Positions 3,829 through 64,000 of a stretch of DNA of 64,000 bases are shown here, one piece after another; position 1 is the stretch's first letter; the number at the start of each line of letters is the position of its first letter. The position numbers were made by a program, and so were the translations under genes. The stretch is from the NCBI GenBank assembly GCA_947445775.1, contig CANFEB010000001.1, positions 80,484-144,483 of the forward strand, in the 5' to 3' direction. Source of the stretch: Oligoflexales bacterium (lineage in GTDB: Bacteria > Bdellovibrionota_B > Oligoflexia > Oligoflexales > RGVZ01). The notes under the pieces are model-generated. The model had not been told where the DNA came from, searched no databases, and was given only the letters and a program-made list of their open reading frames with translations.

Positions 3829-4579
3829 CAGAGACCGCCTGTTTTTCTGCCTGCATCCCCACGGCATCAAATATGACATCAAGGCGCAGCGATGGGAAAT
3901 GAGAAGGATGAAGGCCCGCGCTGTTTGAAGCGAGGTACTCCGCCAGCCGTGCGTCTGGCGAATCTTCCTGGCTTGCGCCTAGGAGCACAGCAAAAGCGCC
4001 GACTTTGAGCAGGGTTTCGGGCCGCAGCACTAGGGATTCAAATAGTGCGTGACCGAAGATGCTCAGGCGCGCATTCGCGGCGGACAGAACTCGTTTGATT
4101 TCCCCTGGATATGCGTGCGGATCGCCCTGGCGGATGCGCCTGATTTCGCCCGCCAACCAAAAGGCAGCACTTTGATCATCCACCAGCACAATGACACCAG
4201 CCTCATCCACAAGGGTCAAAAAATCACGGCGTGGGCCGCGTTTTCCGGGCAGCTCCGTGGCCATGGCCTCCATGTGGATTCGGTTGATGGCGCGTTTAGA
4301 ATGCGGAAAAGTCCGCCAGGCCAATACATTGAAGAGGTCGTGAAGGGAGTTTTTGCGAACCGGCAGGACGCCTTCGGTAAAGATGCGAACTTCATAATTG
4401 CCACGTCCCACAGCGAAATCCACGCGCAATGGCGGTGGGCCAGAGGGGTTTTGCGGCAACAAATCACTTAAAATGGCGTCGAGACTTGCAGCCGATCCTG
4501 ATTCAAAAGCAGGCCAAAGGACTTGCGGCGGCACCGCAAGCCCTGCGAATTCCCCTCGGTCTGCCAATAAAGTGAGCAT
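3800..4579 (-). CDS. DUF3025-like protein
   Basis: 259 aa. SLHDLFNVLAWRTFPHSKRAINRIH recalls the DUF3025 signature. First gene of the overlapping four-gene operon. Confidence 0.4.
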   Translation of the reverse strand: MLTLLADRGEFAGLAVPPQVLWPAFESGSAASLDAILSDLLPQNPSGPPPLRVDFAVGRGNYEVRIFTEGVLPVRKNSLHDLFNVLAWRTFPHSKRAINRIHMEAMATELPGKRGPRRDFLTLVDEAGVIVLVDDQSAAFWLAGEIRRIRQGDPHAYPGEIKRVLSAANARLSIFGHALFESLVLRPETLLKVGAFAVLLGASQEDSPDARLAEYLASNSAGLHPSHFPSLRLDVIFDAVGMQAEKQAVSDVGPIEISK

Positions 4580-15361: not shown

Positions 15362-17572
<2,211 letters not shown>

Positions 17573-18767: not shown

Positions 18768-18948
18768 GTGATCACGCCACCTGGGAAAGTTCGCAAAGAA
18801 ATTTTCGGTAATTACGCCTGGTAATATCATCTCGCAAAACGGGCTCGGCTTCAATTGCGAACCAATTCCAGTCGCGTTGCCTTAAACTGGTGGCTATCAA
18901 AGATTCTGGTATAGTTTTAGTTGGGGCGAAAATCGGGCGAGGACACCC

Positions 18949-20424: not shown

Positions 20425-20456
20425 ATAGCCGCTGGCGCGAAAGTGCCAGCGGCTAT
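20425..20456. terminator. 12-bp perfect hairpin between convergent genes
   Basis: ATAGCCGCTGGC-GCGAAAGT-GCCAGCGGCTAT. It contains the TAG stop (20453-20455) of the 829-aa gene. There is no clean U-run on either side. Confidence 0.45.
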
Positions 20457-23096: not shown

Positions 23097-23882
23097 ATGC
23101 TGCCATATCCGGACATTGACCCTGCAATCTTTACCATCGGCTGGTTTCAACTGCGGTGGTATTCCCTGATGTACATCATCGGCCTTGTTGCCTCGTTTCT
23201 ATTTCTACGGCGCGCGGCACGGAATGGCAGACTTCAGATGACCGACGAACAGATCGAAACCAGCCTCGTTTACGCGTTGATTGGAATGATCCTCGGTGCC
23301 CGCATCGCCTACGTCTTCATCTACAACTTCGATTACTACCGCAATCATTTGAGTGAAATGCTCATGATCTGGCAGGGTGGACTGTCATTCCACGGTGGTT
23401 TTGTCGGCTTGATCACAGGTCTGTTCATTTTTTGCCGCCTCAATAAAATCGAATACCTGAATGTTACCGACAACGTTGCTGCGATCATTCCCGTCGGCCT
23501 CGGTTTCGGCAGGCTTGGAAACTTCATCAACGGCGAATTGTGGGGGCGGGTAACGGATGTTCCCTGGGCGATGGTATTTCCAACTGGCGGACCACTTGCA
23601 CGGCATCCATCACAAATTTATGAGTCGTTTCTCGAAGGCTGGTTTTTGCTGGCACTGACGCTGTTCGTATACTCGCGAAAACCAAAAACCGGGGTGGTGT
23701 CAGCAACTTTTATCCTTGGTTATGCAAGCTTCAGATTCATTGGGGAATTTTTCCGCGAGCCCGACGCACAGCTCGGCACAGTCCTTGGTCCCTTTTCAAT
23801 GGGTCAGGTCCTGTGCGCCGTGATGTGGCTGTTTGGAGCTTTTATCTTTATGTTGTCCCAGTCAAAGACCCGGCGAGCCTGA
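23097..23882 (+). CDS. lgt: prolipoprotein diacylglyceryl transferase
   Basis: 261 aa. WQGGLSFHGGF and GRLGNFINGELWGR. Confidence 0.9.
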   Translation: MLPYPDIDPAIFTIGWFQLRWYSLMYIIGLVASFLFLRRAARNGRLQMTDEQIETSLVYALIGMILGARIAYVFIYNFDYYRNHLSEMLMIWQGGLSFHGGFVGLITGLFIFCRLNKIEYLNVTDNVAAIIPVGLGFGRLGNFINGELWGRVTDVPWAMVFPTGGPLARHPSQIYESFLEGWFLLALTLFVYSRKPKTGVVSATFILGYASFRFIGEFFREPDAQLGTVLGPFSMGQVLCAVMWLFGAFIFMLSQSKTRRA

Positions 23883-24800
23883 CGCGGGTGCTGGAGCAGC
23901 AACTGGCGCTGGCGCTGGAGCAGTAACTGGCGCGGATACTGGCGCTGGAGCAGTAACTGGCGCGGACGCCGGCGCAGCAACTGGCGCGACAGCCGGTTTT
24001 GCGGCCGGATCGACCGCACCCAAGGCAGCAGATTTAGCAGATTCCTTTTCAACGGGAAGATCATCTTTCGGCAGACCTTTGCAATCAGCAAATTCCTGCC
24101 GCAACGATGAGTTCATCTCCTTGAGCAAGTCGTATTCCTTGCCCGACCGAACCCGACCAAAATACTCACTCAACTTCACCGACTTATCGGCACTCATAGT
24201 TTCAAGGATCAACGTCACTTGCTTCTGACGCAGGCGCTTGAACATGGCAACCACGAGGTCGTCATCCATCTTTTCGAATACTGGGGCGGCCTTTTTTGGC
24301 TCCATCTTGTCGTACAACTGCACGAGTTTATCGAGGCGTTCGCCCTTCAAATCCTTTTCTTGCTGAATATTCTGGGCGAAAAACTTGCGTTCCTCCTCCA
24401 GACGTTTCAGCTTGCCGTCGATCGACTGTTCAAGACCCTGAAGTTGCTTTTCGCGTTTTCCAAGCAGCATGACTCGTTCATCGATTTGCTTTTTTTTGCG
24501 GTCCGCCATGGACAGATAGCGGGCCACGTCTTCTTTCTGCAACTTATCCCGATTAAGGGTCGGCAGCTCTAATAAATCATCGAGAAAACTTTTGCGACCA
24601 GCGTCAGCCGGCGCGGCGCCCTGCGCGCTGCCGCCACCTACTGGATCACCGCTGCCCGCAGCATGCAGGTCCGCCTCGCCAAAATGAAGATAGCCTGATT
24701 GGACTGCCAAAAAAACGCCCAGAAGACCGACCTTCGCGCCGGCAACCCATTTGATCCAGGCAGGAAACCCGCTGCGAGACTTTTCAAATACATGAATCAT
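23862..24800 (-). CDS. flagellar MotE/FlbB/YlxF-like protein (MgtE_N-type domain) with an Ala/Pro-rich tail
   Basis: KLVQLYDKMEPKKAAPVFEKMDDDLVVAMFKRLRQKQVTLILETMSADKS. Sits after fliJ, as ylxF does in fla operons. Its 3' end overlaps lgt by 21 nt. Confidence 0.65.
   Translation of the reverse strand: MIHVFEKSRSGFPAWIKWVAGAKVGLLGVFLAVQSGYLHFGEADLHAAGSGDPVGGGSAQGAAPADAGRKSFLDDLLELPTLNRDKLQKEDVARYLSMADRKKKQIDERVMLLGKREKQLQGLEQSIDGKLKRLEEERKFFAQNIQQEKDLKGERLDKLVQLYDKMEPKKAAPVFEKMDDDLVVAMFKRLRQKQVTLILETMSADKSVKLSEYFGRVRSGKEYDLLKEMNSSLRQEFADCKGLPKDDLPVEKESAKSAALGAVDPAAKPAVAPVAAPASAPVTAPAPVSAPVTAPAPAPVAAPAPASGSPGL
23887..23994. repeat. degenerate ~30-bp tandem array (2 near-perfect units plus partials)
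   Basis: GGCGCTGGAGCAGTAACTGGCGCGGA occurs at 23911 and 23941. Encodes (APVTAPAPVS)n in the MotE-like tail. Confidence 0.75.
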
Positions 24801-25289: not shown

Positions 25290-26663
25290 TTACATTCGGC
25301 CAGCCAAAATCCCGCGCACCGCAACCAGTGCCTCATCAAAGGTCGAAACCTCATCGATATCCTGACGCAAAAAACGTTCAATCTGCGGCATCAATTGAAT
25401 GGCCAGATCAAGCTGAGGATTTGTTCCCTGCTGATACGTTCCGATCTGAATGTAATCGTAATTTTCTTCGTAAACACCCAACAGCGACCGCAGTTTGTTG
25501 GCGATCGCCCAATGATCCTTCGAAACAATGTCGAACATGACGCGGCTGGCACTTGTCGGGACATCGATAGCCGGAAAATGGCCCTTGGACGCCAAGGATC
25601 TTGACAGGTTGATGTGGCCATCAAGGATTGATCGGGCAGCATCTGGAATCGGGTCGTTGAAGTCATCGCCGTCGACAAGGACGGTATAAAGTCCACTGAT
25701 ACTTCCTGAGCCTTCTGGCATTGGCCCGCAACGCTCCAATAGTCTTGGCAGCAATGAAAACGTCGACGGCGGATAGCCCTTGGTCGTGGGCGGTTCACCG
25801 ACAGCTAGACCAATTTCACGTTGCGCCATGGCCACGCGGGTCAGAGAGTCCATCATCAATAGAACGCGTTTACCTTGAGCGGCAAAATACTCAGCGATTG
25901 CCGTCGTCAGCTTTGCCCCACGTAGGCGCATGAGGGGAGATTGATCTCCCGTCACCACCACCACCACAGATCGTGCCAGGCCCTCTGGGCCCAAATCGCG
26001 CTCAAGAAATTCCCTGACTTCCCGACCGCGCTCACCGATCAAACCAATCACGTTGATGTCGGCAGACGATCCCCGGGCAATCATGCCCATCAACACGGAT
26101 TTACCGACCCCAGAGCCGGACATGACGCCAATGCGCTGCCCCTCGCCAAAGGTCAAAAGACCATCCATGGCGCGAATGCCCAGGGTCAAGTGACGATCAA
26201 TCCTCTTTCGTTCCATCGGGTTAGGCGCCGCTCGATCCAACGGCACCGTGGCGCATGACCCCGGAATGGCCACCCCCAATTTTCCCGTGAGCGGTTGCGC
26301 CATCGGATCAATGACCTTACCAATAAGATGATCGCCAACCACAACATTGTCAAAACGGTGGATTGCGGTCACGGCGCAACCAGGAGCAATGCCGCCAAGG
26401 TTGTTGTAGGGTAAAATCAGAGAACGATCCCCGTGGAAGCCGACCACTTCACCCAAAACCTCTCCCTGTTGGCCACCAATGGCAATGGAGACAATCGTCC
26501 CCAACTGAGATCCGGGCAAAAAAGCCTCAATGACGGTACCGACAACATCGCAAACCTTGCCGCGGGGATCCCAGTTGATATGGGAAAATGAACGGGCCAG
26601 ATCACCCCGAGAAAATTGCCGCAGATTCACTGAATTTTTTGCGCTGTCTTCCACTGGCATCAA
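25290..26663 (-). CDS. fliI: flagellum-specific ATPase FliI
   Basis: Walker A GSGVGKSVLMGMI and Walker B LLMMDSLTR. ATGA overlap with fliH. Confidence 0.95.
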   Translation of the reverse strand: MMPVEDSAKNSVNLRQFSRGDLARSFSHINWDPRGKVCDVVGTVIEAFLPGSQLGTIVSIAIGGQQGEVLGEVVGFHGDRSLILPYNNLGGIAPGCAVTAIHRFDNVVVGDHLIGKVIDPMAQPLTGKLGVAIPGSCATVPLDRAAPNPMERKRIDRHLTLGIRAMDGLLTFGEGQRIGVMSGSGVGKSVLMGMIARGSSADINVIGLIGERGREVREFLERDLGPEGLARSVVVVVTGDQSPLMRLRGAKLTTAIAEYFAAQGKRVLLMMDSLTRVAMAQREIGLAVGEPPTTKGYPPSTFSLLPRLLERCGPMPEGSGSISGLYTVLVDGDDFNDPIPDAARSILDGHINLSRSLASKGHFPAIDVPTSASRVMFDIVSKDHWAIANKLRSLLGVYEENYDYIQIGTYQQGTNPQLDLAIQLMPQIERFLRQDIDEVSTFDEALVAVRGILAGRM

Positions 26664-27964
26664 CTCGCTTTCCCGGTCTTATCGTCTTTGGCAAACAACG
26701 TGACATCGGCCTGGCTGAGAAGATTCTTCACCATCTTTTTTGCCTGGACATCCACCACACTCAACTGGGATTCGAGGCGGAATTCCCACGGAGCAATATT
26801 TTGGTCCTTAACCAAGTGAGTTTCCAGATCCTTGATGCCAGCTTTTGCCATGGCGTCAGCCGTTTCTGGATTCACGCGAATTTTGAACTGGTCGCCCTTA
26901 ACAGTTTCCGAGACGGCCTTACGCATGATCGTTGCAAATGAATCTGGGCGGATCTCGAATTCGCGCTCCAAAAGCGCCTCGCCCATGGCCTGGCAAAGAT
27001 CAAAAAAGTTCTGCTGAACATTGTCCAGAATCTGACCTTTCAAGGACTCAAACTCCCGGATCAACTCGGTAGCCCGACCGAAAAACTGACTAGCAGTCTG
27101 ACGCGCGCCTAATTCACCCTTTTCCTCGCCAGTTCTGAAACCCGTCTGATAGCCTTCCTGGAACCCCGCGTCCTGTCCGGTTTTACGTCCCTCTTGTTCG
27201 GCAGCATCCTTGGCCTCGGCCACAGCCTTAGCCATCTCGCCCTCCATCTCCTTACGGACTTTCCAGGCTTCGGCCGCCGTCTTCTCAACCGTGTTTGCCG
27301 ATTCACCTTCGCCACCAGAAGTTGCGAGAGGAATGAAGGAACCTGATCCCACGGCTGTGGTTTTCGTCTTTTCATCGCGATTGATGCGAAATGATCCTGC
27401 CTCGCGCTCGAGCGAGGTAACCTCCTGGCGGGGGGTATCCGAAGCCTCTTTCGCACCCTCAGCGGTCTCGGACCAGCCATCTACCGCTGATGTCGCGGCA
27501 GTGGATGGCGCAGCCTCGGATGATGATGCCCCAAAATCCTGTGGGCTCGCATGGCCCGCCGAATCACCCTCACCAAAGATCATTGCAAGCTGGCGCTGGC
27601 CCTCGTCACTAAGTTCCATGGCGTCGTCACCTCGTCCTATCCGGCGCCGCCGACCGGTTGAGGGAGAAATGGCGTCACTCCATTCCGGCGTAAAATCGAC
27701 CGGCTTGATGATAAACCGGTCGCCGTCTTGCGACTTCAACGCCTGATCAAATTTTGGATGCACCAAGACCGTTTTCTTCAAATCCGCATCGGTGTGCAGG
27801 CGGGCATGAATGATGGTCGAGTCCTCATTGTCAAATGAGGCCATGGGTGTCGGGCAGATCTCTTCAAACGAATAAGCGACCACCGCAACATGTTTGATTA
27901 ACCGGTCATTGGCCTTGATGAAGCGGCCCGCTCGTTTTTGACCATCCGTGTTCATCGTTGCCAT
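26660..27964 (-). CDS. fliH: flagellar assembly protein FliH with a ~230-aa N-terminal extension
   Basis: C-terminal ~200 aa: GFQEGYQTGFRTGEEKG...FKIRVNPETADAM...RLESQLSVVDVQAKKMVKNLL. ATG at 27964 (M4 of the ORF). Confidence 0.65.
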   Translation of the reverse strand: MATMNTDGQKRAGRFIKANDRLIKHVAVVAYSFEEICPTPMASFDNEDSTIIHARLHTDADLKKTVLVHPKFDQALKSQDGDRFIIKPVDFTPEWSDAISPSTGRRRRIGRGDDAMELSDEGQRQLAMIFGEGDSAGHASPQDFGASSSEAAPSTAATSAVDGWSETAEGAKEASDTPRQEVTSLEREAGSFRINRDEKTKTTAVGSGSFIPLATSGGEGESANTVEKTAAEAWKVRKEMEGEMAKAVAEAKDAAEQEGRKTGQDAGFQEGYQTGFRTGEEKGELGARQTASQFFGRATELIREFESLKGQILDNVQQNFFDLCQAMGEALLEREFEIRPDSFATIMRKAVSETVKGDQFKIRVNPETADAMAKAGIKDLETHLVKDQNIAPWEFRLESQLSVVDVQAKKMVKNLLSQADVTLFAKDDKTGKAS

Positions 27965-27969
27965 GATGA

Positions 27970-29586
27970 TCAAGCCCCCTGGTTAGGAGTAAGGATCATT
28001 CTGATGGCCTCAACGGTCCGCTTGGGATCGTTCTTGGCCACGTACATGATTTGGTCTTGAGGCGTCATTTTATCAAAAGGCACTTCTTCTTTAACGTGGA
28101 GCGACTGGACCATGGACTGCTCTAGATCGGGCCTGTACTCCTCGATCACGGTGGCCTGGTGTTTGCGTTCATTATCGTAAGTCAACCAGCGGAAGTAGGG
28201 GCGTACTATAAAGGCAAAAAACAGAATCAACGAAACAGCAACCGCTATTGAAGTCGCAATGGTCGAGAAATATTCCCGCTTTTCTTGCGTCTCCATTGAG
28301 ATGACCTGGCGCTGTGCATTGTCGAGCTGAAACATCATGTTGGAAACTTGAACTTCATCGCGACCGTCTTTGAATCCCATGGCGCGCTTGACTAGTTCTT
28401 CAAGCTTTTTCATTTCCTCATCTGATCGCGGGTCAAATGCCGGTTTTACCCCATCACCAATAACCTCTTGTTTTCCGTCAACTAGAACTGCCGCTGTAAG
28501 GCGCCGAACGGTTCCAACAGGCATCAGCTTTTTGCTGACAGTCTTGGAGACTTCAAAGTTCACAAGTTCAGAGTCACGTTTATTTGAGGACGAATTTCCC
28601 GAACTGGACGGGGTTTCTTGTTCTCCCGGAACGTTGGACTTGCTTCCCGGAATGCCGGTCGGATTTAGCCCAGCCCCTTGCATGGCTTCCCCCGATGTGT
28701 TCCGGGAAACCACCGCTGTCTTGTCAGGGTCAACATCAGAGATGGTTTGCTCTTCTTGGGTAAAATCCACGGTGGCATCCACCTTGGCATCCACGCGGTC
28801 GTGACCAACGACCTTGCCAACGATGGAACGAATTTTTTCCTCGATCTCCCGTTCGACGGCCTGCTTATAGGCCAGCATTTCTTTGGTCATCTTGGTGGCA
28901 AAGTCCTCGGATTCAATCTTGGTCAGGAGCTTTCCCTCCTGATCGATAATGGAAATATTGTTGGGCTTAAGGCCCTCTACCGCCCGGGAAACAAGATGCT
29001 GGATGCCCCGAATTTGCTTTTCTTCAAGGGAAGATCCCCGTTTGCTCTTGATGTAGACAGACGCCGTGGGTTCTTTTTGCTCCTGCACAAACACCGATTG
29101 CTTTGGCAAGACAATATGCACGCGCGCCGAGTTGATGCCGTCAATTGACATTATGGTCCGAGATAGTTCACCTTGAATGGCCCTAAGCCGGTTGATCTGC
29201 TGTTCGAATTCTGTTCGGGCAAACTCTTGTTTGTCAAATTTTTCCCAGCCGACTACGCCATGCGCCGGAAGGCCTTCTTGGGAAAGTTGCAGGCGCAGGC
29301 TAAGTACGCGCTCTCTGGGGACCTTAACACCCTTGGAATCAACGACAAAATCATTGACCCCATTGCGCTTGAAGTGTTCCACGATGGCCTGAGAGTCCTC
29401 GGCGCTTAGGTCGATAAAAACATACTCGTACGGATCCTCACGCCCGGTGATCAAAAGCCCGGCCATAACCGCGAGCAACGCTGCCGCAATGACCCCGACG
29501 GTCATTTTGCGGGGCATTGACTGCGCATTCCAGAACGCGCTCGTCTGGGCCCAAACTTTGATGATGAAATCGCGAAGATTATTCAC
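27970..29586 (-). CDS. fliF: flagellar M-ring protein FliF
   Basis: 538 aa with an N-terminal TM segment, a YscJ/FliF-like region (LSAEDSQAIVEHFKRNGV...) and a C-terminal TM. Confidence 0.85.
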   Translation of the reverse strand: MNNLRDFIIKVWAQTSAFWNAQSMPRKMTVGVIAAALLAVMAGLLITGREDPYEYVFIDLSAEDSQAIVEHFKRNGVNDFVVDSKGVKVPRERVLSLRLQLSQEGLPAHGVVGWEKFDKQEFARTEFEQQINRLRAIQGELSRTIMSIDGINSARVHIVLPKQSVFVQEQKEPTASVYIKSKRGSSLEEKQIRGIQHLVSRAVEGLKPNNISIIDQEGKLLTKIESEDFATKMTKEMLAYKQAVEREIEEKIRSIVGKVVGHDRVDAKVDATVDFTQEEQTISDVDPDKTAVVSRNTSGEAMQGAGLNPTGIPGSKSNVPGEQETPSSSGNSSSNKRDSELVNFEVSKTVSKKLMPVGTVRRLTAAVLVDGKQEVIGDGVKPAFDPRSDEEMKKLEELVKRAMGFKDGRDEVQVSNMMFQLDNAQRQVISMETQEKREYFSTIATSIAVAVSLILFFAFIVRPYFRWLTYDNERKHQATVIEEYRPDLEQSMVQSLHVKEEVPFDKMTPQDQIMYVAKNDPKRTVEAIRMILTPNQGA

Positions 29587-29597
29587 TGGTCACTCCG

Positions 29598-29951
29598 TCA
29601 GACAGGCATCCGCATAACTTCTTGGTACGCTTCAAGGGCACGATTTCTGACTTGGACCATGAGATTGAAGGTCAGCTCTGCCGTCGATGTGGCGAGCATG
29701 GCCTCATGCAGATTCTCAGACTTTCCCGTAGCCACCGCCGTGGTCATCTTGTCTGCTGTCTTGGCACTTTCATTGACCTCAGAGACGCGGGCTTGCAACT
29801 GGTCAAAAAAAGACATTTTTCCGGTGGAAGCCGGAGTGTCCTGCTGAACAGGGGACGGCATGCCCGTCGTTGGACCTTCGCGACGGATTTCATTGAACCT
29901 CGCGAACAGGTCTTCTGCTGCTTTCGCTGAAATTGACATTTGTGAAGCCAT
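29598..29951 (-). CDS. fliE: flagellar hook-basal body protein FliE
   Basis: 117 aa. C-terminus TAELTFNLMVQVRNRALEAYQEVMRMPV. Confidence 0.75.
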   Translation of the reverse strand: MASQMSISAKAAEDLFARFNEIRREGPTTGMPSPVQQDTPASTGKMSFFDQLQARVSEVNESAKTADKMTTAVATGKSENLHEAMLATSTAELTFNLMVQVRNRALEAYQEVMRMPV

Positions 29952-29973
29952 GTCAGTCCTCCATCATTTCGGA

Positions 29974-30417
29974 TCAACGACCAATTTCCAGAGCCTTCAT
30001 CGCCATTTGCTTGGTTTCATTCAATGCGGTTGCATTCGCCTCATAGGCGCGCGTTGCCGAAATCATGTTCACCATTTCACTCATCACTTGAACGTTGGGC
30101 ATTTCAACGTAGCCATCAAGATCTGCATCTGGGTGCGACGGATCAAGAACCCGTCTCGGTGCGCCTTGATCCTGGTGGATTCCCGTCACTTGCACTTTGG
30201 CAAGCTTTGCATTGTAGGTTCCATCAAGGTAATCGCCGAACTGATCGCCCGTCGGTTTTGCCGTAAAAATAACGTCGCGGCGGCGATAGGCTCCGCCCTC
30301 TTCCGTGCGAGTCGTTTGGGCATTTGCCAGGTTAGTGCTTAATACGTTCATGCGCAGGCGTTGCGCCGACAGTGCGGACGAGCTAATCGCCATCGACTTG
30401 AAGGTGCTCATGCTCAA
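29974..30417 (-). CDS. flgC: flagellar basal-body rod protein FlgC
   Basis: LSAQRLRMNVLSTNLANAQTT; 147 aa. Confidence 0.9.
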   Translation of the reverse strand: MSMSTFKSMAISSSALSAQRLRMNVLSTNLANAQTTRTEEGGAYRRRDVIFTAKPTGDQFGDYLDGTYNAKLAKVQVTGIHQDQGAPRRVLDPSHPDADLDGYVEMPNVQVMSEMVNMISATRAYEANATALNETKQMAMKALEIGR

Positions 30418-30839
30418 CGGCCTCCACTGATGGCATACCGGAGCATGCCGAGTTTACGATTCAAAGTCTCCACGGATGCCCGGTACAAAATCTGGTTCTC
30501 AGAGAACTGGGCCATTTCCGTGTCGATGTCCACCGTGTTGCCATCGTGCGCTACAGATTCTGTTGGCCTGACGAAGACGTCTGGCCTGATCGTTCCGTCG
30601 GCCTGAGTGAAAGCGTTATGCAAATGTTTGGGGTTGTTGGTGCGAACTGGGATAGCCTCGCTGCCACCAGTCACTTCTTGCAGCTGCTTTTCAAAGTCAT
30701 AGCCAAGGGCGCGAAATCCCGGTGTCTCTGCATTGGCAATGTTGCTGGTGATCACCTGGCTGCGTCGCATCCGGTGACCCAATGCCGCGACTTGCACCTT
30801 GTCATTGAAATCGAACAAGCTATTAATGGCTTGGCTCAA
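30414..30839 (-). CDS. flgB: flagellar basal-body rod protein FlgB
   Basis: SQVITSNIANAETPGF; 141 aa; 4-nt overlaps on both sides. Confidence 0.85.
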   Translation of the reverse strand: MSQAINSLFDFNDKVQVAALGHRMRRSQVITSNIANAETPGFRALGYDFEKQLQEVTGGSEAIPVRTNNPKHLHNAFTQADGTIRPDVFVRPTESVAHDGNTVDIDTEMAQFSENQILYRASVETLNRKLGMLRYAISGGR

Positions 30840-31960
30840 GTTGCCCTCCCTGTCAGCGGTGCGATCACGTCGATCCCTTCCGCTGAAAACTCATTGATCT
30901 TATTGCGCAACGTGCGAAGGCTGATTCCAAGCGTCTTGGCTGCGTGAGTCCGGTTGCCCTGATGATGCTCAAGGGTCCGCAAAATGAACTGAGTCTCGAC
31001 AGCCTGCAGGGTCCGTCCGACGGGAAGGGCTTCAATCCATGCGTTGGCTGCGGAGTCTTGAAGGCCACCAACTCCCTCAAAGCCGAGGTCCACAGCCTGA
31101 ATGACGTCCGTTGTAGAAGTAACCACCGCGCGCTTGATGACATTCTGCAGCTCACGAACGTTGCCCGGCCATGTGTAGGCGCGCAAGGCCTTGCGAGCAT
31201 CGTCAGTAAGGCGAACGGGACTGCGCCCGGCCGCAATGCATTCTTTTTCAGCAATATGTTGCGCGAGCGCCTCAATGTCTGCCGGGCGTTGGCGTAGGGC
31301 CGGAACTTCGATGTGAAGGACATAAAGTCGGTAGTACAGGTCCTGCCTGAATTCACCCCTGGCAACCATTGCCATTGGGTCGACGTTGGACGTGGCAATG
31401 ATGCGGCCATTGAGAGAAACGTCGGAGTTGCCACCAAGACGGCGGACTTTGCGCTCTTCAATGACTCGCAGCAATTTTGACTGATTGCCAGCATCTATAT
31501 TCGTGACCTCATCCAAGAGTAGCGTGCCATTGTTGGCGCTTTCAACGAGTCCAATCCGGTCAGCAATGGCACCAGTGAAGGCTCCCCTTTGGAAACCAAA
31601 AAGTTCACTTTCAAACATCGTTGACGGGATTGCAGAACAGTTCACTGCAACAAACGGACCAGCAGAAAATACTGACCGGGCATGAATGTACCGGGCAATT
31701 GTTTCCTTGCCGCAACCCGACTCACCAGTGATTAGAACTGGTAGGTTAACGGCTGCAATCTGGTCGGCAATTTCTTTGATACGGCGCATGGCTGGATCGG
31801 CAACAAGCCAACCACCATCGCAAATGAACGACTCGATGGGCGCGGGGGCTGCTTGCTTAGCCCGCGCATAGTCGACATAGGTAGCAGCAGATTCTGGCTG
31901 GCCAGCCGGCCTGGAACCTGCCTGCGAAACAAGATCTTTACGAAGGGCTACGTTGTTCAT
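30836..31960 (-). CDS. sigma54-dependent transcriptional activator (AAA+ plus HTH, no receiver or sensor domain)
   Basis: LITGESGCGKE, ELFGFQRGAFTGA (GAFTGA), LLLDEV, C-terminal HTH NRTHAAKTLGISLRTLRNKI. Only about 55 aa precede the AAA+ core. Confidence 0.85.
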   Translation of the reverse strand: MNNVALRKDLVSQAGSRPAGQPESAATYVDYARAKQAAPAPIESFICDGGWLVADPAMRRIKEIADQIAAVNLPVLITGESGCGKETIARYIHARSVFSAGPFVAVNCSAIPSTMFESELFGFQRGAFTGAIADRIGLVESANNGTLLLDEVTNIDAGNQSKLLRVIEERKVRRLGGNSDVSLNGRIIATSNVDPMAMVARGEFRQDLYYRLYVLHIEVPALRQRPADIEALAQHIAEKECIAAGRSPVRLTDDARKALRAYTWPGNVRELQNVIKRAVVTSTTDVIQAVDLGFEGVGGLQDSAANAWIEALPVGRTLQAVETQFILRTLEHHQGNRTHAAKTLGISLRTLRNKINEFSAEGIDVIAPLTGRAT

Positions 31961-32024: not shown

Positions 32025-34334
32025 CTATTTCTTCTGGATCTGGGTCAGCCTTTCGGTGGCCAGATTTGCATAAAAAAGATTGTTGCCATCAGCCTTAGCC
32101 TTCTCAAGTGCAGCCACGGCCTCATCCTTGCGGCCGGCCCGGTAGAGCAGCAAGCCGGCTTTGTAGAGCGTCTCTGCGCGTCCCTCCCAATTTTCGCTTT
32201 CGGCGGCAACTAGGCTGAAAATGCGACCGGCATCTAGGTATTCATTGTCCTTGCGGTATTCCTCGCCCAGCTCCAACAACTGGTCCATCCAGGCTTTACG
32301 CGCCGCCTTGTCATCGCCAAATTGAGATGGTTTCATCTCACGCAACATATCCAGAGCAGCGCGGCGCTCTTTTTCCATTCCAAGAACAGAAAATCGCGCG
32401 GCAAGACTGGAAATCAATTTTGCAGAAGCCGCCGATGGCGCGAATTCATTTTTGAGGTCCGGAGTCGCCGGTCCAGTCGATGTTGTTTGGCGGGCGCTGA
32501 AATTATCCTTCCATGACGACAGAATCAATTTGGCAGGGGTGCGCAATTTGGCGGCCAAGCCGAGTGATGACTCCAGTGGCTGGCGAAAGGCTGCATACAA
32601 CTGTTCGCGCTCTGTTGGTTTGAGCCCTGCCAAGGTGGCCGCCATTGCGCGGTCAGCTTCGATCATGTGGCGGTTGAAGGGAGAGATCTTAGTCTGACCT
32701 GATTTGATGCGAGTCAATAATTCAACGGATTCAGACGCCGTTTGGGCCAACCAGAATTGCGCCTTGAAACGGTCAACTCCCGTGCCTTCCTTGGCAGCCG
32801 AATCGTAGAAGTCAACGGCGGCTTGGGGCTGACCAATGCTTCGGTATGACTCGCCAAGTGCCCAGGCCGTCTTAGGGTTTTTGCGGACCGATTGCAGGGG
32901 TCTTGGCAACAATTCAAAAGTCTGTACGGCCTCCACATGACGCCCTGCCAGCGATTGCTCCTGAAGCAATCCATCCAGACGAAGGCGCAGGCGCGTCAAG
33001 AGTTCAGCGCGCATCGGATCAAATTCTGCGGTTTTGTAATCACGAAAATAATTTGCGGCGAAGTTTCCAGCATCCACCGTCCAATTGCGACGACTATCTA
33101 GGCGGGCGGCCAACAAGAGGGATGCCGTCAAAAATCTTGTCCTAGGATGAGTCAGACTAGGAAATGCTGATTCAAGATCACGGACCTCCATCTCGTCCAG
33201 TTCGGGAATTGGTGATTTAGTTTTCGCAGAGGCGTTACGCCAAAAAGATGTTCTAAGGACTTTGCCGGCCCGATAGTCTGGGGAGGCCGTCGCAACGTCG
33301 AGTGCTGCCAATGCCGGGGCAACTTTTGGCAAAATATCAGTTTCGCCAGCGATTGCGGCCTCCGTGGCGTGGACGTCGATCAGACGCATGGCGGCCAGGG
33401 AATGAAACGGCGTGCCTGGAAATCGTTTCGTGATCGTGTCGTAATAGCCGCCGGCTAAAGATAAATTCCCCTGGCCAAGGTGGATCTCCGCCATGCGCCA
33501 AAGGCTGGCCGGGTCCCGTTCAATCGCTAGCGGATCATGGAATAGCAGTTGCTGATAGACGGACATCGACCGGAGCTCTTCGCCGTTGGCAAACAGGTCC
33601 GCGGCGAGGTCCGACAAACCTTTTGTCGATGCCATGGCCTTGGCACATGCCTCCACCGGAATTTCGCCGGCGTACTTGGATTTTGCGGTAAGGGAGTCAA
33701 ATCGGTAAACGGGATCGCTCAAACGATCCCACGAAGCGGCGCGACCGGGCTTGGCCTGTTTCAACTGGCTGCACAGGTCAGCCGCATTTTCGAACTTTTT
33801 TGGGGCAGGCTGAAAAATTCTGCGCTGAGAGGCCGGTTCTGTTGGTTTCGCGGCAGGCACATTCTGCGCAAGGGCCGGTTTGAGGTCATTGCCCGTCACT
33901 GGCAACCCATCTGTGGTTCGTGCTGGGGTGTATCCCCGTTTGAAAATCGCGACCACGAGCCGAAATGGCTCCTCGAAATCATTGACCGTTGCGACGACAT
34001 CGCGAGACTTCAGCTTCATCATGATCTCGACACCATCAGCGCCTCTGTCTTTGACCAGAAGGCGGCGAATGAGGTCCTCGTCGTAGCGCTCAAGGGCTTG
34101 CAATTCTGTCGATGAGGTTTTTAGGATTTCGATCCTGACCGTGTTTTCGACTGCGTCATACTTCGCCGTGTAGGGGCGGGTGTCGGGAAAGGGCAGGACA
34201 ATCTCCGAATAATCGGCTGCGATCGCGGGGGCACTTTGCAGACAAAGCACCATTGCAGTCACCGGCGCCAGAGCTTGGGACGCAAAGCGCAGGGTTTTAA
34301 CATGGAGAATCCATGACCGTGAACGGGAGCCCAT
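32025..34334 (-). CDS. secreted TPR-repeat protein (769 aa) heading the flagellar cluster
   Basis: Signal peptide ...SAPAIA-AD and an N-terminal beta-module (possibly AMIN-like, PFRLVVAIF). TPR-like C-terminus (AETLYKAGLLLYRAGRKDEAVAALEKA). Confidence 0.6.
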   Translation of the reverse strand: MGSRSRSWILHVKTLRFASQALAPVTAMVLCLQSAPAIAADYSEIVLPFPDTRPYTAKYDAVENTVRIEILKTSSTELQALERYDEDLIRRLLVKDRGADGVEIMMKLKSRDVVATVNDFEEPFRLVVAIFKRGYTPARTTDGLPVTGNDLKPALAQNVPAAKPTEPASQRRIFQPAPKKFENAADLCSQLKQAKPGRAASWDRLSDPVYRFDSLTAKSKYAGEIPVEACAKAMASTKGLSDLAADLFANGEELRSMSVYQQLLFHDPLAIERDPASLWRMAEIHLGQGNLSLAGGYYDTITKRFPGTPFHSLAAMRLIDVHATEAAIAGETDILPKVAPALAALDVATASPDYRAGKVLRTSFWRNASAKTKSPIPELDEMEVRDLESAFPSLTHPRTRFLTASLLLAARLDSRRNWTVDAGNFAANYFRDYKTAEFDPMRAELLTRLRLRLDGLLQEQSLAGRHVEAVQTFELLPRPLQSVRKNPKTAWALGESYRSIGQPQAAVDFYDSAAKEGTGVDRFKAQFWLAQTASESVELLTRIKSGQTKISPFNRHMIEADRAMAATLAGLKPTEREQLYAAFRQPLESSLGLAAKLRTPAKLILSSWKDNFSARQTTSTGPATPDLKNEFAPSAASAKLISSLAARFSVLGMEKERRAALDMLREMKPSQFGDDKAARKAWMDQLLELGEEYRKDNEYLDAGRIFSLVAAESENWEGRAETLYKAGLLLYRAGRKDEAVAALEKAKADGNNLFYANLATERLTQIQKK

Positions 34335-34392: not shown

Positions 34393-34408
34393 AGCAAGGG
34401 TCGTGCCA
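34393..34408 (-). promoter_or_regulatory. sigma54 (-24/-12) promoter
   Basis: Minus strand reads TGGCACGACCCTTGCT, an exact match to TGGCACG-N4-TTGCW. The GC element lies about 60 nt upstream of the TPR gene ATG (34334). Confidence 0.75.
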
Positions 34409-59416: not shown

Positions 59417-60282
59417 CTACCCATAGCGTTGTTTGGTCGGCGACCAGTCCGACATAGATTCTTTCGGTCCAACCACTTCACTCGCATGCTTGCGCGCCTG
59501 TGCCATGAAACCGGTGCCGAGTTCCTGTTCGGCAGCAGCTTGATTGTGGCGACGACACCGCAAAGTCAAATTTTCCTCGCTATGTTTACCGCCGCGACAC
59601 CACATTTTAATGTGGTCTAATTCTAGCATCGAACGCTCGGGGCAGCGGCTGCCGCCGGAATGCCTCCACGTGCATTGACCGCGGTCGCGTAGCCATACTG
59701 TGTGACGAATCGCCGCTGGAATTGCTGGACGGGTTGCTGGTTTTTTGTATGGACTCTGACCGCCATTCCCTGGAGAAGCGGGCTCGGAGACTACTTCTGC
59801 GTCGGTCTCTGTCTCTACTTCGGCCATGGCCGTCTTCGCCGGAGAAGGAGAAGGAGAAGGAGAAGGAGAATTTTCGAAGCGCGCCATTGCCCTTTCCGCC
59901 TTCCTAAGTGGGTCACGTTTATCAAGCAAATCTTCGAGAGCCTTAACCAAAATTTCGGGCAGCGACGGCATGCGACCGCCACCCCTCATGTTAGCCAGGA
60001 CCTAGCGGGCTCGGTCCAACAATAGAAGTGCCACCTCTCTTTTTGATTTGTGCTTGATACCATCAAGAAGGAACTCAGAATTTGCCTGAGTGATTTTCGG
60101 CGCAATTAGAGCCAAGTGAGACACTTGAGTCTCGACAGATTCCAGCAGCTTTCGCGCCGTTCAAGTTCACCGATGAGCGACACGGATTGGCGTGGCACAC
60201 ATTTTTTAGAAAAACTTCAAACATGCATCGAGGAACGTACTAATGGCGAAGCCTGACGTTCAAAAATCGTGTCAAGCGACAT
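59417..60282 (-). pseudogene. HNH endonuclease gene (DUF222-like N-region) with an in-frame TAG, upstream frameshift(s) and a probable internal deletion
   Basis: ORF 59417-59989 carries LELDHIKMWCRGGKHSEENLTLRCRRHN. The same frame upstream reads TARKLLESVETQVSHLALIAPKITQANSEFLLDGIKHKSKREVALLLLDRAR-TAG(60002-60004)-VLANMRGGG. Further 5' pieces lie in other frames, up to the ATG at 60282. Confidence 0.65.
59841..59870. repeat. hexanucleotide repeat (GGAGAA)5
   Basis: Encodes (SP)5 in the HNH ORF. Confidence 0.9.
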
Positions 60283-60337: not shown

Positions 60338-60354
60338 TTGGCTCATCGCAACAG
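60338..60354. repeat. 17-bp direct repeat, right copy
   Basis: Spans the last three codons and the stop (60343-60345) of the ATPase gene. Confidence 0.9.
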
Positions 60355-61563
60355 CCCAAAAAGATGCAGTGGAATTCGTCGCCCAGAACTTGCTTCGATG
60401 CCGTCGACAGCCACCACGCGCTTTAGGTCACCCCGCACCGGGTTTGCCGCAAATTGCCGTTCGGTCTTGCCGGAGCCACCAACTTCGACAGCGATCTGGT
60501 CGTCAACGATAAAGTCGATATTACCTAGAGACTTCACCGAATGGTGGGGACGAAGGCTGGTACAAAAGAAGGTCTCGCGAACTGTGCCTATAGATGGTTC
60601 AACTCGATGGGGTGCTGTGATGGCGGCCAGCAAATTTGTATTTTCCAGATAAACTTTTTCTGGTTTGCGGGCAGATTTGATCCCAGTTCCAGCAGCGGCA
60701 ATTGTTTGTAACAAACGGCCATGTTCCAGACAGTCGAGGAAATGATAGGTCGAGGCTTTTGCAATCCCCAAATTTCTGCTCAATGCTTCGATATTCAAAT
60801 GGAATGGTACGGTGGAGGAAACGATCCAAAGTATCTTTTTGAGTGTGTTGACCTTTGCCGCGGAGATCGCGAATTGACTCGTGAGATCTTCGGAAACAAC
60901 TTTGTCTATGATGTTTTGCAAACGCTGGTGATAACCCTCGAGGCCTTGCATAAAAAACGGATAATGGCCGTACTTCAGGTAGTTCCTGAACGCGTTGAGT
61001 AGATTTCCTTTGGCCGCCAGGTCGCGCGCGATGGTCGAGTGATGGGCGATCAAATCATCTAGCGTAATAACGGCTATGTCGCCTTGGCCTGTGAGGTGCA
61101 AATATTCTCGAAATGATAATCCAGGCAAATCGTACCAGAGTACGCGTCGTGACAAATCGGCATTCCCTTTTGTCAGTGCAGACGAAGAGCTGCCGCTGAT
61201 CCAAATCGATTTTTTTGGGTATGTGTCAATTAGGCTTTTAATCTCTGCGCCCCAGTCGGTGGCACGGTGGGCCTCATCAATGATAAGGCCCTCGCCTCCA
61301 CGCTTAAAGTATTCCCGACCGATATTGTAGACCCCAAGGGCTGACACTTCGACATGATCGGCGGAAATATAGAGGCAGCGCTCGTGCGAGCCAAAAACTT
61401 CCCAGTATTTTTGCAGCAACAGGGTTGTTTTGCCGACCCCCCGGCCGCCTGTGAGGCCAATAACGCGAGCATTCCAGTCGATGTCTAGGACGTTCACTCG
61501 CGAATAGGACTTCGGAACCTCTGCGGTGACCAGATCGTGGATCTCTATGATGTTATCGAGCAT
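60343..61563 (-). CDS. AAA+ ATPase with C-terminal nuclease-like domain (AAA_14/DUF4143-type, divergent subfamily), intact
   Basis: 406 aa. Walker A GGRGVGKTTLL, Walker B LIIDEAHR, C-terminal IDFIVDDQIAVEVGGSGK. Confidence 0.75.
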   Translation of the reverse strand: MLDNIIEIHDLVTAEVPKSYSRVNVLDIDWNARVIGLTGGRGVGKTTLLLQKYWEVFGSHERCLYISADHVEVSALGVYNIGREYFKRGGEGLIIDEAHRATDWGAEIKSLIDTYPKKSIWISGSSSSALTKGNADLSRRVLWYDLPGLSFREYLHLTGQGDIAVITLDDLIAHHSTIARDLAAKGNLLNAFRNYLKYGHYPFFMQGLEGYHQRLQNIIDKVVSEDLTSQFAISAAKVNTLKKILWIVSSTVPFHLNIEALSRNLGIAKASTYHFLDCLEHGRLLQTIAAAGTGIKSARKPEKVYLENTNLLAAITAPHRVEPSIGTVRETFFCTSLRPHHSVKSLGNIDFIVDDQIAVEVGGSGKTERQFAANPVRGDLKRVVAVDGIEASSGRRIPLHLFGLLR

Positions 61564-61605: not shown

Positions 61606-61639
61606 GAATAAATCGTCTAGTAGAGTAGACGATTTATTC
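61606..61639 (-). terminator. 14-bp perfect inverted repeat (hairpin; terminator or operator)
   Basis: GAATAAATCGTCTA-N6-TAGACGATTTATTC. On the minus strand it is followed by AATTTAT. Lies between the lipoprotein stop (61672) and the ATPase start (61563). Confidence 0.4.
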
Positions 61640-61671: not shown

Positions 61672-62568
61672 TCACTTGGTCCGGCACGACACGCGGCTGG
61701 AGACCTCATTTGGCGACAGCCCGGCCACACAGACGCGCATATTCAAATTGAATCTGGCCTGGCATTTGCCGTTGCCATCAGCGGAAAGTTTTACGTTGGC
61801 CACATTTCCAGGATTAGTGTCGACCTCGCAGGCGGCGGGTGTTGACTCGGCCGCATCACACGACGGTTGGATGGGCGGACAATCACCGGCGTAACGGTCC
61901 TGGCCCTGGCAAGAAATATCCTGCAGCAACTCAGGATTCAAATTACGGGAACACGCTTCCCGGGCCAACTCAGTTCGCGCAACACAACTATTTCCGCCCC
62001 AGGCGACTAAGGGTCTCTCGGACGGGGTGGCACTTCCCGCATACCTTTGCGCGGTGCAGCGCGACGGATCAAACAAGGTGATGCACATACCAGGAACCAC
62101 CGGACACTTTTGTCCACTCGCATCCGGCGCGCACTTGATGGCGTCTAGAGCCTTGACGTCCCAGCCCCGATTGCAGGCCTCGGACAACACCGCTTTGCGG
62201 GCCTGACACTCATTCAGCGAAAATGCATAAGGACGATGCCCCGGCGTCAAGATAGTTCCTGAAAATTCACGCAACTCACAAAATGTTGCCACGCCGCCCG
62301 CCGGGCAGACCTTGTCCAATTCCTTGCAAATATCGGGCTTCATCAGCGCTGCACCGCCTGAAGACGCACCCTCGCCAGCTCCGCCTTTCATTCCGGGATC
62401 GACCGGACCAATTGATTCTTGAATGGGGGAACCATTGGCATCACCGCCCAGCCCACGAGATGACCTGACGGTTTGCTTGCCCAAGCAGGCTGAAACCATA
62501 GCCAAGGGCAAGGCCAGAGCGAGGCATGCGGTGGCACAGCGCAGAAAAATTTTAGTTGGCCGCATCAT
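61672..62568 (-). CDS. Cys-rich lipoprotein with three ~65-75-aa Cys-patterned modules
   Basis: Start MMRPTKIFL... with lipobox MVSAC. Recurrent pattern C-x6-7-CP...C(Q/V)AR-x6-7-(A/V)C...(K/S)C. The start overlaps the flgD 3' end by about 14-17 nt. Confidence 0.6.
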   Translation of the reverse strand: MMRPTKIFLRCATACLALALPLAMVSACLGKQTVRSSRGLGGDANGSPIQESIGPVDPGMKGGAGEGASSGGAALMKPDICKELDKVCPAGGVATFCELREFSGTILTPGHRPYAFSLNECQARKAVLSEACNRGWDVKALDAIKCAPDASGQKCPVVPGMCITLFDPSRCTAQRYAGSATPSERPLVAWGGNSCVARTELAREACSRNLNPELLQDISCQGQDRYAGDCPPIQPSCDAAESTPAACEVDTNPGNVANVKLSADGNGKCQARFNLNMRVCVAGLSPNEVSSRVSCRTK

Positions 62569-63592
62569 GGTTCTCCGTGGCGTCAGATTCAGCTTCTTCA
62601 GTTGTCGCAAAAACCACCGGGATATCAAGGCCAACTTGGCCATCAACGTTGTCATTGGCTTCGGAGGCCGATACTTCCATGTCAGCCGCGCCAGCCGCGC
62701 CAGCCGCAGCAACCTTAACCTCGGTCTTAACTTTTTCTTCCGCCATCCGCACCGCCACCACGTCCTTGGCAGAAATTTTGCCGGCCGCCGTCATAAAGGC
62801 ACCTGCGGGATCTTTCAAATCAACGCCGGTGACTTTGATACGCGTCTGCACCGGAACCGGAACGGCTTGCCCCTCATCAGCAGTGGCCGTGATGTTAAAC
62901 GTGTAGGCCCCGTCTTTAAGTCCCTCGCCGTTGCTCCCCAGGCCACTCCATTGCAAATCCTGCTCGCCTTCACGCAATTGACCGAGGTCTTCCGTGGCCA
63001 CGATCTCGCCATTTTCATCTCGGACTTCCAGGGAAGCCCCGGCAATTGGCCGGTCGATATTAAAGCTGACCTGACCGGGGCTGCCCTTGGAAATCAGCGC
63101 CCGCCCGCCCTCTATCGTCACATCACGCCCGACGTAGTCCAGCATGCCGAAATTGCGGCCATTGCTCTGGCCCTTCAGCATTTCTGTCAGCGTCTTGTTG
63201 ACGTTGAGCATTTGCTCGAGGCCGTTAAACTGCGCCAACTGGGCGGCCATCTGGGCGCTGTCGTCAGGTTTCAGCGGATCTTGATTTTGCAATTGGGCAA
63301 TAAACAGTTTTAGAAAATCGTCCTTATCCAACTGGTTCTTTGGACCCCGCTGTGGGTTATTGCGTTCATTGAGGAGCTTATAAAAATCCTCGTCGGTCTT
63401 TGCCCCAGACAAATCGCCTTCCTTGCTGGTTGCACGGTCTCTGGCGGCGTCGATGTTTGAACTCATGAGAATATTTTTGAAGGAGGCGTCTCCTTCACCC
63501 GAAACAACCTTTGCTGGACCCTTGGAATCCGCGGGCCCCGAGGCGGCCTTGCCCGTGTACGGACTGATTTTGTCTTGTAAGGTAGCCTGCAT
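62552..63592 (-). CDS. flgD: flagellar hook assembly/capping protein FlgD
   Basis: ATG 63592 after GGAGAGG. DDFLKLFIAQLQNQDPLKP and a FlgD Ig-like C-terminal region. Confidence 0.85.
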   Translation of the reverse strand: MQATLQDKISPYTGKAASGPADSKGPAKVVSGEGDASFKNILMSSNIDAARDRATSKEGDLSGAKTDEDFYKLLNERNNPQRGPKNQLDKDDFLKLFIAQLQNQDPLKPDDSAQMAAQLAQFNGLEQMLNVNKTLTEMLKGQSNGRNFGMLDYVGRDVTIEGGRALISKGSPGQVSFNIDRPIAGASLEVRDENGEIVATEDLGQLREGEQDLQWSGLGSNGEGLKDGAYTFNITATADEGQAVPVPVQTRIKVTGVDLKDPAGAFMTAAGKISAKDVVAVRMAEEKVKTEVKVAAAGAAGAADMEVSASEANDNVDGQVGLDIPVVFATTEEAESDATENHDAAN

Positions 63593-63674: not shown

Positions 63675-64000
63675 TCAAGCGAGGACTTTAATCCGCCCAG
63701 AGCCGCCGACCGTACGGTCGCTGAGATCCACAATTCGAAATGACCGCAACGCCTGGCGGCCCACCTGCTCATTCAACGCCTCAATGGACGGCCCACGGCC
63801 CAGGCTTTGCTTTCCAGACTGAGGGCTTCCCTCGCGCCTCTCGTCAAAGCCGCCCGACCAGCCCTGATTGGCCGGGCCACTGTTGGGTCCGGACCAAGAT
63901 CTGGAATCAAATTCACGAAGCTGCAAATTTTGTTCGCCGAGCGATGCCTTTAACTGCGGTAACTCGCGGGTAATCATTTCGCGTAGCTCTTCGGAGCCAG
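63675..64000 (-). CDS. fliK: flagellar hook-length control protein FliK, C-terminal part (5' end outside the window)
   Basis: The frame is open to 64000: ...GSEELREMITRELPQLKASLGEQNLQLREFD..., which is Flg_hook-like. The position immediately upstream of flgD is canonical. Confidence 0.5.
   Translation of the reverse strand, partial: GSEELREMITRELPQLKASLGEQNLQLREFDSRSWSGPNSGPANQGWSGGFDERREGSPQSGKQSLGRGPSIEALNEQVGRQALRSFRIVDLSDRTVGGSGRIKVLA

Follow-up and report, generated by a model that had tools for sequence, protein, structure and literature searches.

What kind of protein is encoded directly behind flgD, the place usually taken by flgE, when the gene found there is not flgE? This question is raised by a stretch of 64,000 nucleotides from the genome of an Oligoflexales bacterium (GenBank assembly GCA_947445775.1, contig CANFEB010000001.1, positions 80,484 to 144,483 of the forward strand), referred to below as the window. 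In it, the gene following the hook-cap gene flgD encodes a cysteine-rich lipoprotein, the first member of a family that has not been described before and has so far been seen only in Oligoflexales. The strongest clue to its function is its universal, often translationally coupled position after flgD. There is about an even chance that the product is a non-enzymatic envelope lipoprotein that acts as an accessory of the flagellum and is made at the stage of hook assembly. The coordinates of the gene and of the features around it are collected in Table 1.

The lipoprotein gene ends with a TGA codon (61674-61672) on the minus strand; an earlier note on this DNA, made from the sequence without database searches, had correctly taken the gene to be real and left its strand unstated. 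The mechanical list of open reading frames (ORFs) gives a span of 61672-62712, while the biologically sensible start lies further in, where the minus-strand junction reads ...ACGGAGAACC ATG ATG CGG CCA ACT AAA... In-frame ATG codons at 62568 and 62565 produce overlaps with the end of flgD of 17 and 14 nt, respectively, in agreement with the approximately 14-17 nt given in the earlier note. The ATG at 62565 is favored because a GGAG element is located 7 nt upstream, because relatives have the same arrangement, GGAGAAC-N4-ATG with a 14-nt overlap (loci L001, L002, L004, L005, L006, and L017), and because the homologue P0001, 93% identical, begins with MRPTK. The Shine-Dalgarno spacing and the starts of the relatives thus support the call, and the overlap is not the artefact of a wrong start that the note had allowed for. 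The overlap suggests that translation of the lipoprotein is coupled to that of flgD in this clade. Both the GC content of the gene (0.578) and the GC content at third codon positions (GC3, 0.60) resemble those of flgD, and the lipoprotein gene therefore looks native.

The presence of the sequence MRPTKIFLRCATACLALALPLAMVSA-C after a signal peptide, matching the lipobox pattern [LVI][ASTVI][GAS]C, identifies the product as a lipoprotein with Cys28 as the lipidated residue. This cysteine never varies among the members of the close clade, and in 62 relatives it shows a conservation of at least 90%; the lipobox with Cys28 is nearly invariant across the family, and none of 65 family members has Asp directly behind the lipobox Cys. 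The lgt gene is encoded within the window (23097-23882). The mature protein begins with a disordered tether of about 50 aa, the length of which ranges across the family from 13 to 84 aa with a median of 29 aa. The tether contains a short motif, (V/I)QE..x.P...G.KGG (residues 50-63, window positions 62380-62420), whose residues Q50, P55, G59, K61, and G63 do not vary within the close clade; it could be a linear binding motif.

The remainder of the protein consists of three modules of 70-76 aa with six cysteines each and a common spacing of C-x6-C-x8/9-C-x21/23-C-x10-C-x13/14-C. Along the chain, the 18 module cysteines are separated by 6,8,23,10,13 residues within module 1, by 8 up to module 2, by 6,8,23,10,13 within module 2, by 9 up to module 3, and by 6,9,21,10,14 within module 3. 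All 18 are invariant in the eight closest sequences. Module 2 is the most conserved of the three across the family, and its spacing of x6, x8, x23, x10, x13 is found in most of 91 family copies. BLASTP aligns module 1 with module 2 at E=8e-9 and module 2 with module 3 at E=0.002; therefore, the triplication is not due to chance. Translation and cysteine spacing bear out the architecture described in the earlier note, a lipobox MVSAC and a Gly-rich linker followed by three modules, and the three segments that it quoted with the pattern C-x-AR...C are correct. Its claim of a cysteine pattern shared by all modules stands as regards the repeat itself; the register in which it was written fails for modules 2 and 3, where 'CP' comes after C1, while in module 1 it comes after C2.

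A word-indexed search of 5.8 billion proteins found seven close homologues (51-93% identity), and an exhaustive HMMER search over 1.84 billion cluster representatives gave 95 matches at E<=1e-3, including 66 at E<=1e-10. Nearly all HMMER matches are 180-330 aa long and have the same layout of lipobox, linker, and three modules; the match to P0022, a repetitive protein of 1562 aa, is spurious. The few named family records read 'hypothetical protein [Oligoflexales bacterium]', and the genome matches are metagenome-assembled genomes labelled Oligoflexales or Pseudobacteriovorax, plus two unclassified ones. The lipoprotein itself has no match in Pfam (E<=1) or NCBIfam, Pfam searches with 62 relatives gave no credible match, and nothing in the PDB matched even at E<=10, whether the query was the profile of the full-length protein, that of the module, or a single module. 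The module can thus be assigned to no known family in Pfam, NCBIfam, and PDB sequence searches or in the Foldseek comparisons described below, as the earlier note had supposed.

The genomic position of the gene was compared among relatives, to which a degenerate DNA pattern for WG-x-N-x-C-x-A-x7-AC-x3-L-x-P added 15 metagenome loci; one of these, L025, was a chance match. All loci were scored with hidden Markov models of the module and of FlgD. In every locus with enough upstream DNA (21/21), flgD is located directly upstream on the same strand, down to 24-36% identity of the lipoprotein; in the loci outside these 21, the gene is cut by a contig end or preceded by too little DNA. No family copy apart from flgD was found in the scored loci. 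The co-occurrence with flgD that the earlier note proposed to check therefore holds, and of the two findings that it named as jointly fatal, a match of the module to a well-known domain unrelated to flagella and the absence of the gene next to flgD in close relatives, neither was made.

The junction between the two genes is an overlap of at least 14 nt in the closer relatives and mostly a gap of 15-53 nt in the distant ones. The order fliK-flgD-lipoprotein gene is kept in the loci of P0012, P0049, and P0014 (36, 24, and 34% identity, respectively), with gaps of 18-53 nt. The fliK gene leaves the window; genes with full-length Flg_hook domains occupy its position in L001, L004, L010, L012, L013, and L030. 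In the close clade (L001, L003, L004), the order is alpha/beta-hydrolase, fliK, flgD, lipoprotein gene, and a convergent RNase G gene. Downstream neighbors vary by clade and comprise the convergent RNase G gene, genes for unknown proteins of 575-625 aa, or a 111-aa ORF. No sigma-54-like element was found on the coding strand between fliK and the lipoprotein gene. Being on the same strand, overlapping or closely spaced, and kept in this arrangement across divergent relatives, the lipoprotein gene qualifies as a member of the fliK-flgD operon.

The identity of flgD is supported by a match of its product to the FlgD model of NCBIfam at 3.2e-41, under that model's curated cutoff, and its ATG at 63592 is preceded by a strong Shine-Dalgarno element. 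The FlgD protein is unusually long, 346 aa in the window and 337-425 aa in relatives, with an N-terminal extension of about 75 aa and a C-terminal tail that is Ala/Gly-rich and then acidic; the end of the acidic tail region overlaps the start of the lipoprotein gene. At the other end of the operon in relatives, the alpha/beta-hydrolase gene overlaps the start of fliK by 4 nt (L001, 6085-6897; L030, 1780-2592), so that the hook operon seems to open with a non-flagellar enzyme. This hydrolase was considered as a secreted partner and rejected, since it has no signal peptide and is cytoplasmic.

The statement of the earlier note that flgE is absent from the window proved accurate. Of the genes sought by a scan for N- and C-terminal rod/hook motifs only flgB was detected in the window, and Pfam searches with all its large ORFs revealed no FlgE domains. 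No FlgE-like ORF is located within 10 kb of the lipoprotein gene in 29 related loci, and the downstream genes for 575-625 aa proteins in distant relatives, which were checked for flgE, contain no flagellar domains. The lipoprotein cannot itself be regarded as FlgE, as evidenced by the absence of Flg_bb_rod, FlaE, and Flg_bbr_C domains (Pfam, E<=1) and of the rod/hook motifs.

A second flagellar cluster (25290-31960) comprises genes for a sigma-54 activator, flgB, flgC, fliE, fliF, a FliH-like ORF, and fliI. On its fliI side, the last gene (23862-24800, minus strand) codes for a YlxF-like protein that contains an MgtE_N domain, and it abuts lgt on the opposite strand. In fla operons of the Bacillus and spirochete types, fliK-flgD-flgE comes after the YlxF-like position. 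Here this position is not followed by fliK-flgD, and the ancestral operon therefore appears broken, with fliK-flgD relocated about 38 kb away. The lipoprotein gene marks a hook operon of altered order, fliK-flgD-X, whose flgE lies elsewhere. The second cluster is headed by an ORF for a tetratricopeptide repeat (TPR) protein (32025-34334), followed by the sigma-54 activator, flgB, flgC, fliE, and fliF; a perfect sigma-54 -24/-12 element (TGGCACGACCCTTGCT) is located just upstream of this ORF, at 34393-34408 on the minus strand. Within the cluster, fliF overlaps by 4 nt a 437-aa ORF (26660-29586 for the pair, minus strand); this ORF matches FliH only over its C-terminal ~115 residues, and its N-terminal ~300 residues have no match. 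The gene fliG normally sits between fliF and fliH, and none is recognizable there.

A structural model of the lipoprotein was obtained with AlphaFold. With eight sequences the full-length prediction was poor, with a predicted local distance difference test score (pLDDT) of 53.8, while with 62 sequences the mean pLDDT rose to 82.9, mostly above 90 in the modules, and the predicted template modeling score (pTM) was 0.72. In the model, every module opens with an N-terminal loop bearing C1 and C2. Two strands follow, the first of them with C3, then a helix of 14 residues that extends from C4 to C5, and after a short turn the module closes with a strand that holds C6. In module 1 (pLDDT ~90), the model contains a helix at residues 79-85, strands at 95-99 and 114-117, a helix at 120-133, and a strand at 144-148. 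Foldseek found no significant match in the PDB, the best being ribosomal protein eL20 at E=0.054 with a root-mean-square deviation (rmsd) of 14-17 Å, and none in BFVD, where a Pandoravirus Kazal-like protein at rank 36 (E=2.6) was dismissed as noise. Some uncharacterised phage proteins of 57-74 aa in BFVD align to a single module with an rmsd of 2.8-3.7 Å and a target-normalized TM-score of 0.46-0.67, at non-significant E values of 0.8-3.1. These alignments suggest that the strand-strand-helix-strand core, taken by itself, is a small fold of common occurrence.

The pattern of conservation gives an indication of how the cysteines may be paired. All six are kept in 239 of the 253 aligned module copies, and the sole losses by substitution occur in pairs: C1 with C5 in P0087 and P0090, and C2 with C4 in P0074. 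Taken from the alignment, these paired losses in three sequences imply disulfides 1-5 and 2-4, and therefore 3-6 for the remaining pair. The C4-x10-C5 spacing is invariant in the 239 copies and C5-x13-C6 nearly so; the C2-C3 loop is 8 to 14 residues long, and its sequence differs strongly between copies. Conserved positions other than cysteines belong mainly to the core and turns, namely WG-x-N before C4, the A/L/A pattern of the helix, L-x-P-x-x-L-x-x-I before C6, and PD-x-S-x-G between the modules. Such a pattern fits a rigid scaffold that would present variable loops, and is not enzyme-like.

The location of the protein, in the periplasm or at the outer membrane, and its flagellar or inhibitory function are what we infer from context, as follows. 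The lipoprotein gene would share a transcript with fliK and flgD, and its product would be exported by the Sec pathway and lipidated by Lgt, with the signal peptide cut off just ahead of the lipobox Cys. Its lipid probably anchors the mature protein in the outer membrane, since the lipobox Cys is never followed by Asp, the residue that retains lipoproteins at the inner membrane under the Escherichia coli sorting rule. With about 50 residues, the flexible tether could reach across much of the periplasm and would carry the three disulfide-pinned modules. Action by binding, rather than by catalysis, seems most likely because the conserved residues are cysteines and core hydrophobics, the C2-C3 loops are variable, and no residues of a catalytic type are conserved. 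We propose that the lipoprotein may be a periplasmic accessory or scaffold of the flagellar basal body, and that it is made as the hook cap is being assembled and the tip of the rod arrives at the outer membrane. Oligoflexales relatives are predators seen with a single flagellum (PMC12865303), and a working flagellum is therefore to be expected.

Several points weigh against this assignment. The argument for a flagellar role is drawn from gene context, and the whole upstream block is syntenic among relatives, from L21-L27-Obg...PepN through the alpha/beta-hydrolase gene to fliK and flgD, with non-flagellar genes included; because of this, the adjacency to flgD is weaker evidence than it appears, and its conservation could partly reflect inheritance. 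Foldseek against the PDB revealed no likeness to known flagellar ring or disk proteins, alignment of the modules with the FliF of this genome by hhalign gave a probability of 0.1%, and no match to FlgH, FlgP, or related proteins was found in Pfam and NCBIfam. In addition, the Asp sorting rule was established for E. coli and may not hold in Bdellovibrionota, and the predicted disulfide pairing depends on three informative sequences. It is conceivable, though somewhat unlikely, that the protein is a general envelope lipoprotein outside motility, for instance one with a structural or adhesive role at the surface or in the periplasm, and that it owes its place at the end of the fliK-flgD unit to inherited gene order. 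Other non-flagellar genes of the region are indeed kept in conserved order, including the alpha/beta-hydrolase gene that overlaps the start of fliK by 4 nt, no flagellar protein family shows similarity to the lipoprotein, and the ancestral fla operon is fragmented, with flgBC-fliEF...fliI located 30 kb away and flgE elsewhere. However, the junction persists in 21/21 loci, even though identity of the gene itself has fallen as low as 24% and other genes have taken the place of those downstream; in closer relatives, the overlapping frames and the ribosome-binding site within flgD tie its expression to that of flgD, and no family copy was found apart from it. A very improbable possibility is a metal- or redox-active protein in which the 18 cysteines would serve as metal ligands or form a thiol-disulfide relay. 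The high cysteine content and the presence of CP and CPP motifs agree with such a role, but there are no CxxC pairs, the cysteines are widely spaced and fixed within a folded alpha/beta module, and they are lost in pairs, as disulfide partners would be. The protein would also be exported to an oxidizing envelope, and the genome encodes a haem peroxidase-family protein (Pfam peroxidase, ORF 15362-17560).

The remaining alternative, compatible with a flagellar role, concerns protease inhibition. Kazal domains have disulfides 1-5, 2-4, and 3-6 and the order loop, strand, strand, helix, strand; their PROSITE-type signature is C-x7-C-x6-Y-x3-C-x2,3-C. We consider it unlikely that the lipoprotein is a three-headed, Kazal-like canonical inhibitor of serine proteases, tethered in the envelope and guarding FlgD, FlgE, FliK, or the envelope itself from the predator's own proteases, with the C2-C3 loop of each module as the reactive-site loop. 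The element order of the modeled module equals that of Kazal domains, and the paired cysteine losses in three sequences imply the same connectivity. Many copies carry a loop C-x-x-[ED]-[FYW]-x-P-x-x-C, such as CTYEFKPSRC or CTLEFRPSKC (P0031), both resembling the loop CTLEYRPLC of the third domain of ovomucoid, and the Asn two residues ahead of C4 (WG-x-N-x-C) recalls the TY-x-N-x-C of Kazal domains. The scaffold is invariant and the loop presumed to be reactive is hypervariable, three tandem heads are reminiscent of ovomucoid, and the relatives in Oligoflexales are predators (PMC12865303). Against this, Pfam assigned no Kazal family to the lipoprotein (E<=1) or to 62 relatives (E<=0.1), and hhalign of the profile of 253 modules with seven Kazal domains, all confirmed as Kazal_1, gave probabilities of 0.1-0.4%. 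Profile and sequence searches of the PDB were empty, and no Kazal chain is among the 50 Foldseek matches listed for the PDB, all with E>0.05. The spacings C2-x8-C3, C3-x23-C4, and C4-x10-C5 differ from the x7, x10, and x2-3 of Kazal domains, a C2-C3 loop that ranges over 8-14 residues is unusual in canonical inhibitors, whose reactive loop must adopt a fixed conformation, and the module 2 loop of the window clade, CITLFDPSRC, lacks the residues reminiscent of ovomucoid. The neighborhood of the gene encodes no partner protease, and the alpha/beta-hydrolase next to the operon in relatives carries no signal peptide. The earlier note was thus right that the spacing does not fit Kazal, and the profiles fail as well, though the modeled element order matches and the cysteine losses point to the Kazal pairing; membership in the Kazal domain family is rejected on profile and spacing, and the likeness is kept as an analogy. 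Should it nevertheless be meaningful, the lipoprotein would represent a new class of flagellar component, an outer-membrane-tethered Kazal-like array made in step with the hook cap, which we regard as decidedly unlikely. Such an array might keep the envelope proteases of the predator itself away from hook-stage subunits that are exported and still unfolded or, alternatively, engage the cap and the rod tip and help the hook to cross or evaginate the outer membrane.

Table 1. Position and strand of the lipoprotein gene, its parts, and adjacent features in the window.
Feature	Coordinates	Strand	Basis or remark
Lipoprotein gene	61672..62565	minus	ORF and translation; start ATG 62565 likely, ATG 62568 alternative; 297/298 aa
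Signal peptide and lipobox, residues 1-28 from ATG 62568	62485..62568	minus	...LALPLAMVSA/C; translation
Gly/Ser/Ala-rich disordered tether, residues 29-77	62338..62484	minus	pLDDT 25-50 in both models
Module 1, residues 78-148	62125..62337	minus	C81, C88, C97, C121, C132, C146
Module 2, residues 149-222	61903..62124	minus	C155, C162, C171, C195, C206, C220
Module 3, residues 223-298	61675..61902	minus	C230, C237, C247, C269, C280, C295
GGAG Shine-Dalgarno element	62573..62576	minus	inside the 3' end of flgD, 7 nt before ATG 62565
Overlap of flgD and lipoprotein gene, 14 nt	62552..62565	minus	flgD stop TAA = 62554-62552
flgD, hook-cap gene, 346 aa	62552..63592	minus	Pfam FlgD 2.3e-20, FlgD_ig 2.2e-17
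fliK 3' end, hook-length control	63675..64000	minus	weak Flg_hook match on fragment; gene leaves the window
Perfect 14-bp AT-rich hairpin	61606..61639	minus	33 nt past the lipoprotein stop; terminator scan

The hairpin downstream of the lipoprotein gene has a predicted RNA folding energy of -22.2 kcal/mol for its region and may be a terminator or the edge of an inserted downstream ATPase segment. Between the lipoprotein gene and the convergent RNase G gene, the minus strand carries genes for an AAA_14/DUF4143 ATPase (60343-61563) and an HNH endonuclease (59417-59989). Both are missing in L001, L003, and L004, and the closest relative, L031, contains the ATPase gene without the HNH gene. The GC3 of this segment is 0.52-0.55, compared with 0.60-0.64 in its neighbors. 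It looks like a recent insertion, possibly mobile or defense-related. Elsewhere in the window, three large minus-strand ORFs, 2377-3882, 17691-18854, and 20453-22942 (501, 387, and 829 aa, respectively), have no Pfam match at E<=0.5.

Flagella are among the best-studied bacterial machines, and newly imaged lineages have each revealed lineage-specific periplasmic parts. In the obscure and mostly uncultured Oligoflexales, a predatory order of Bdellovibrionota about which little is known, the lipoprotein is a candidate part of this kind. It also represents a new protein family and a small disulfide-rich fold without an entry in Pfam, NCBIfam, or the PDB. If true, the Kazal-like reading would link canonical protease inhibition to flagellar assembly, a link of which we know no description, and a new class of component would mean that a fold of the protease-inhibitor type was recruited as a dedicated flagellar assembly factor. 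Even if the Kazal likeness fails, the family would be a useful marker and a target for cryo-tomography of Oligoflexales flagella.

Among known systems, FlgE has only the operon position in common with the lipoprotein, which carries a Sec signal and a lipobox instead of a type III export N-terminus. The ring-building motifs of EscJ/PrgK and FliF (alpha-beta-beta-alpha-beta) have the helix-strand-strand-helix-strand order of module 1, and EscJ and PrgK are likewise tandem-domain lipoproteins, belonging to type III secretion machines. However, modules 2 and 3 are without the first helix and ring-building motifs are not disulfide-stapled; this identity was rejected, as Foldseek gave no match to EscJ, PrgK, or FliF and hhalign with FliF was negative. 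Kazal inhibitors (Kazal_1/Kazal_2, MEROPS I1) have in common with the lipoprotein six cysteines per module, the element order, and the predicted pairing, and ovomucoid has three tandem domains as well; an aromatic-x-Pro sequence occurs in the C2-C3 loop of many family copies. The lipoprotein differs from them in a hairpin longer by 13 residues, a C5 shifted by about two helical turns (C4-x10-C5), and a C2-C3 loop that is one residue longer and variable in length, and it is membrane-anchored and encoded in a bacterial flagellar operon. FlgH of the L-ring and FlgP of the Vibrio and Campylobacter basal disk are, like the lipoprotein, Sec/Lgt lipoproteins encoded with flagellar structural genes, and their presumed common site of action is the periplasm or outer membrane surrounding the rod and the hook. 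The lipoprotein has no sequence or fold similarity to them, consists of disulfide-rich tandem repeats on a long tether, and is encoded after flgD and not with the ring genes. In being restricted to a single lineage, it resembles FlgP, FlgT, and the Pfl proteins.

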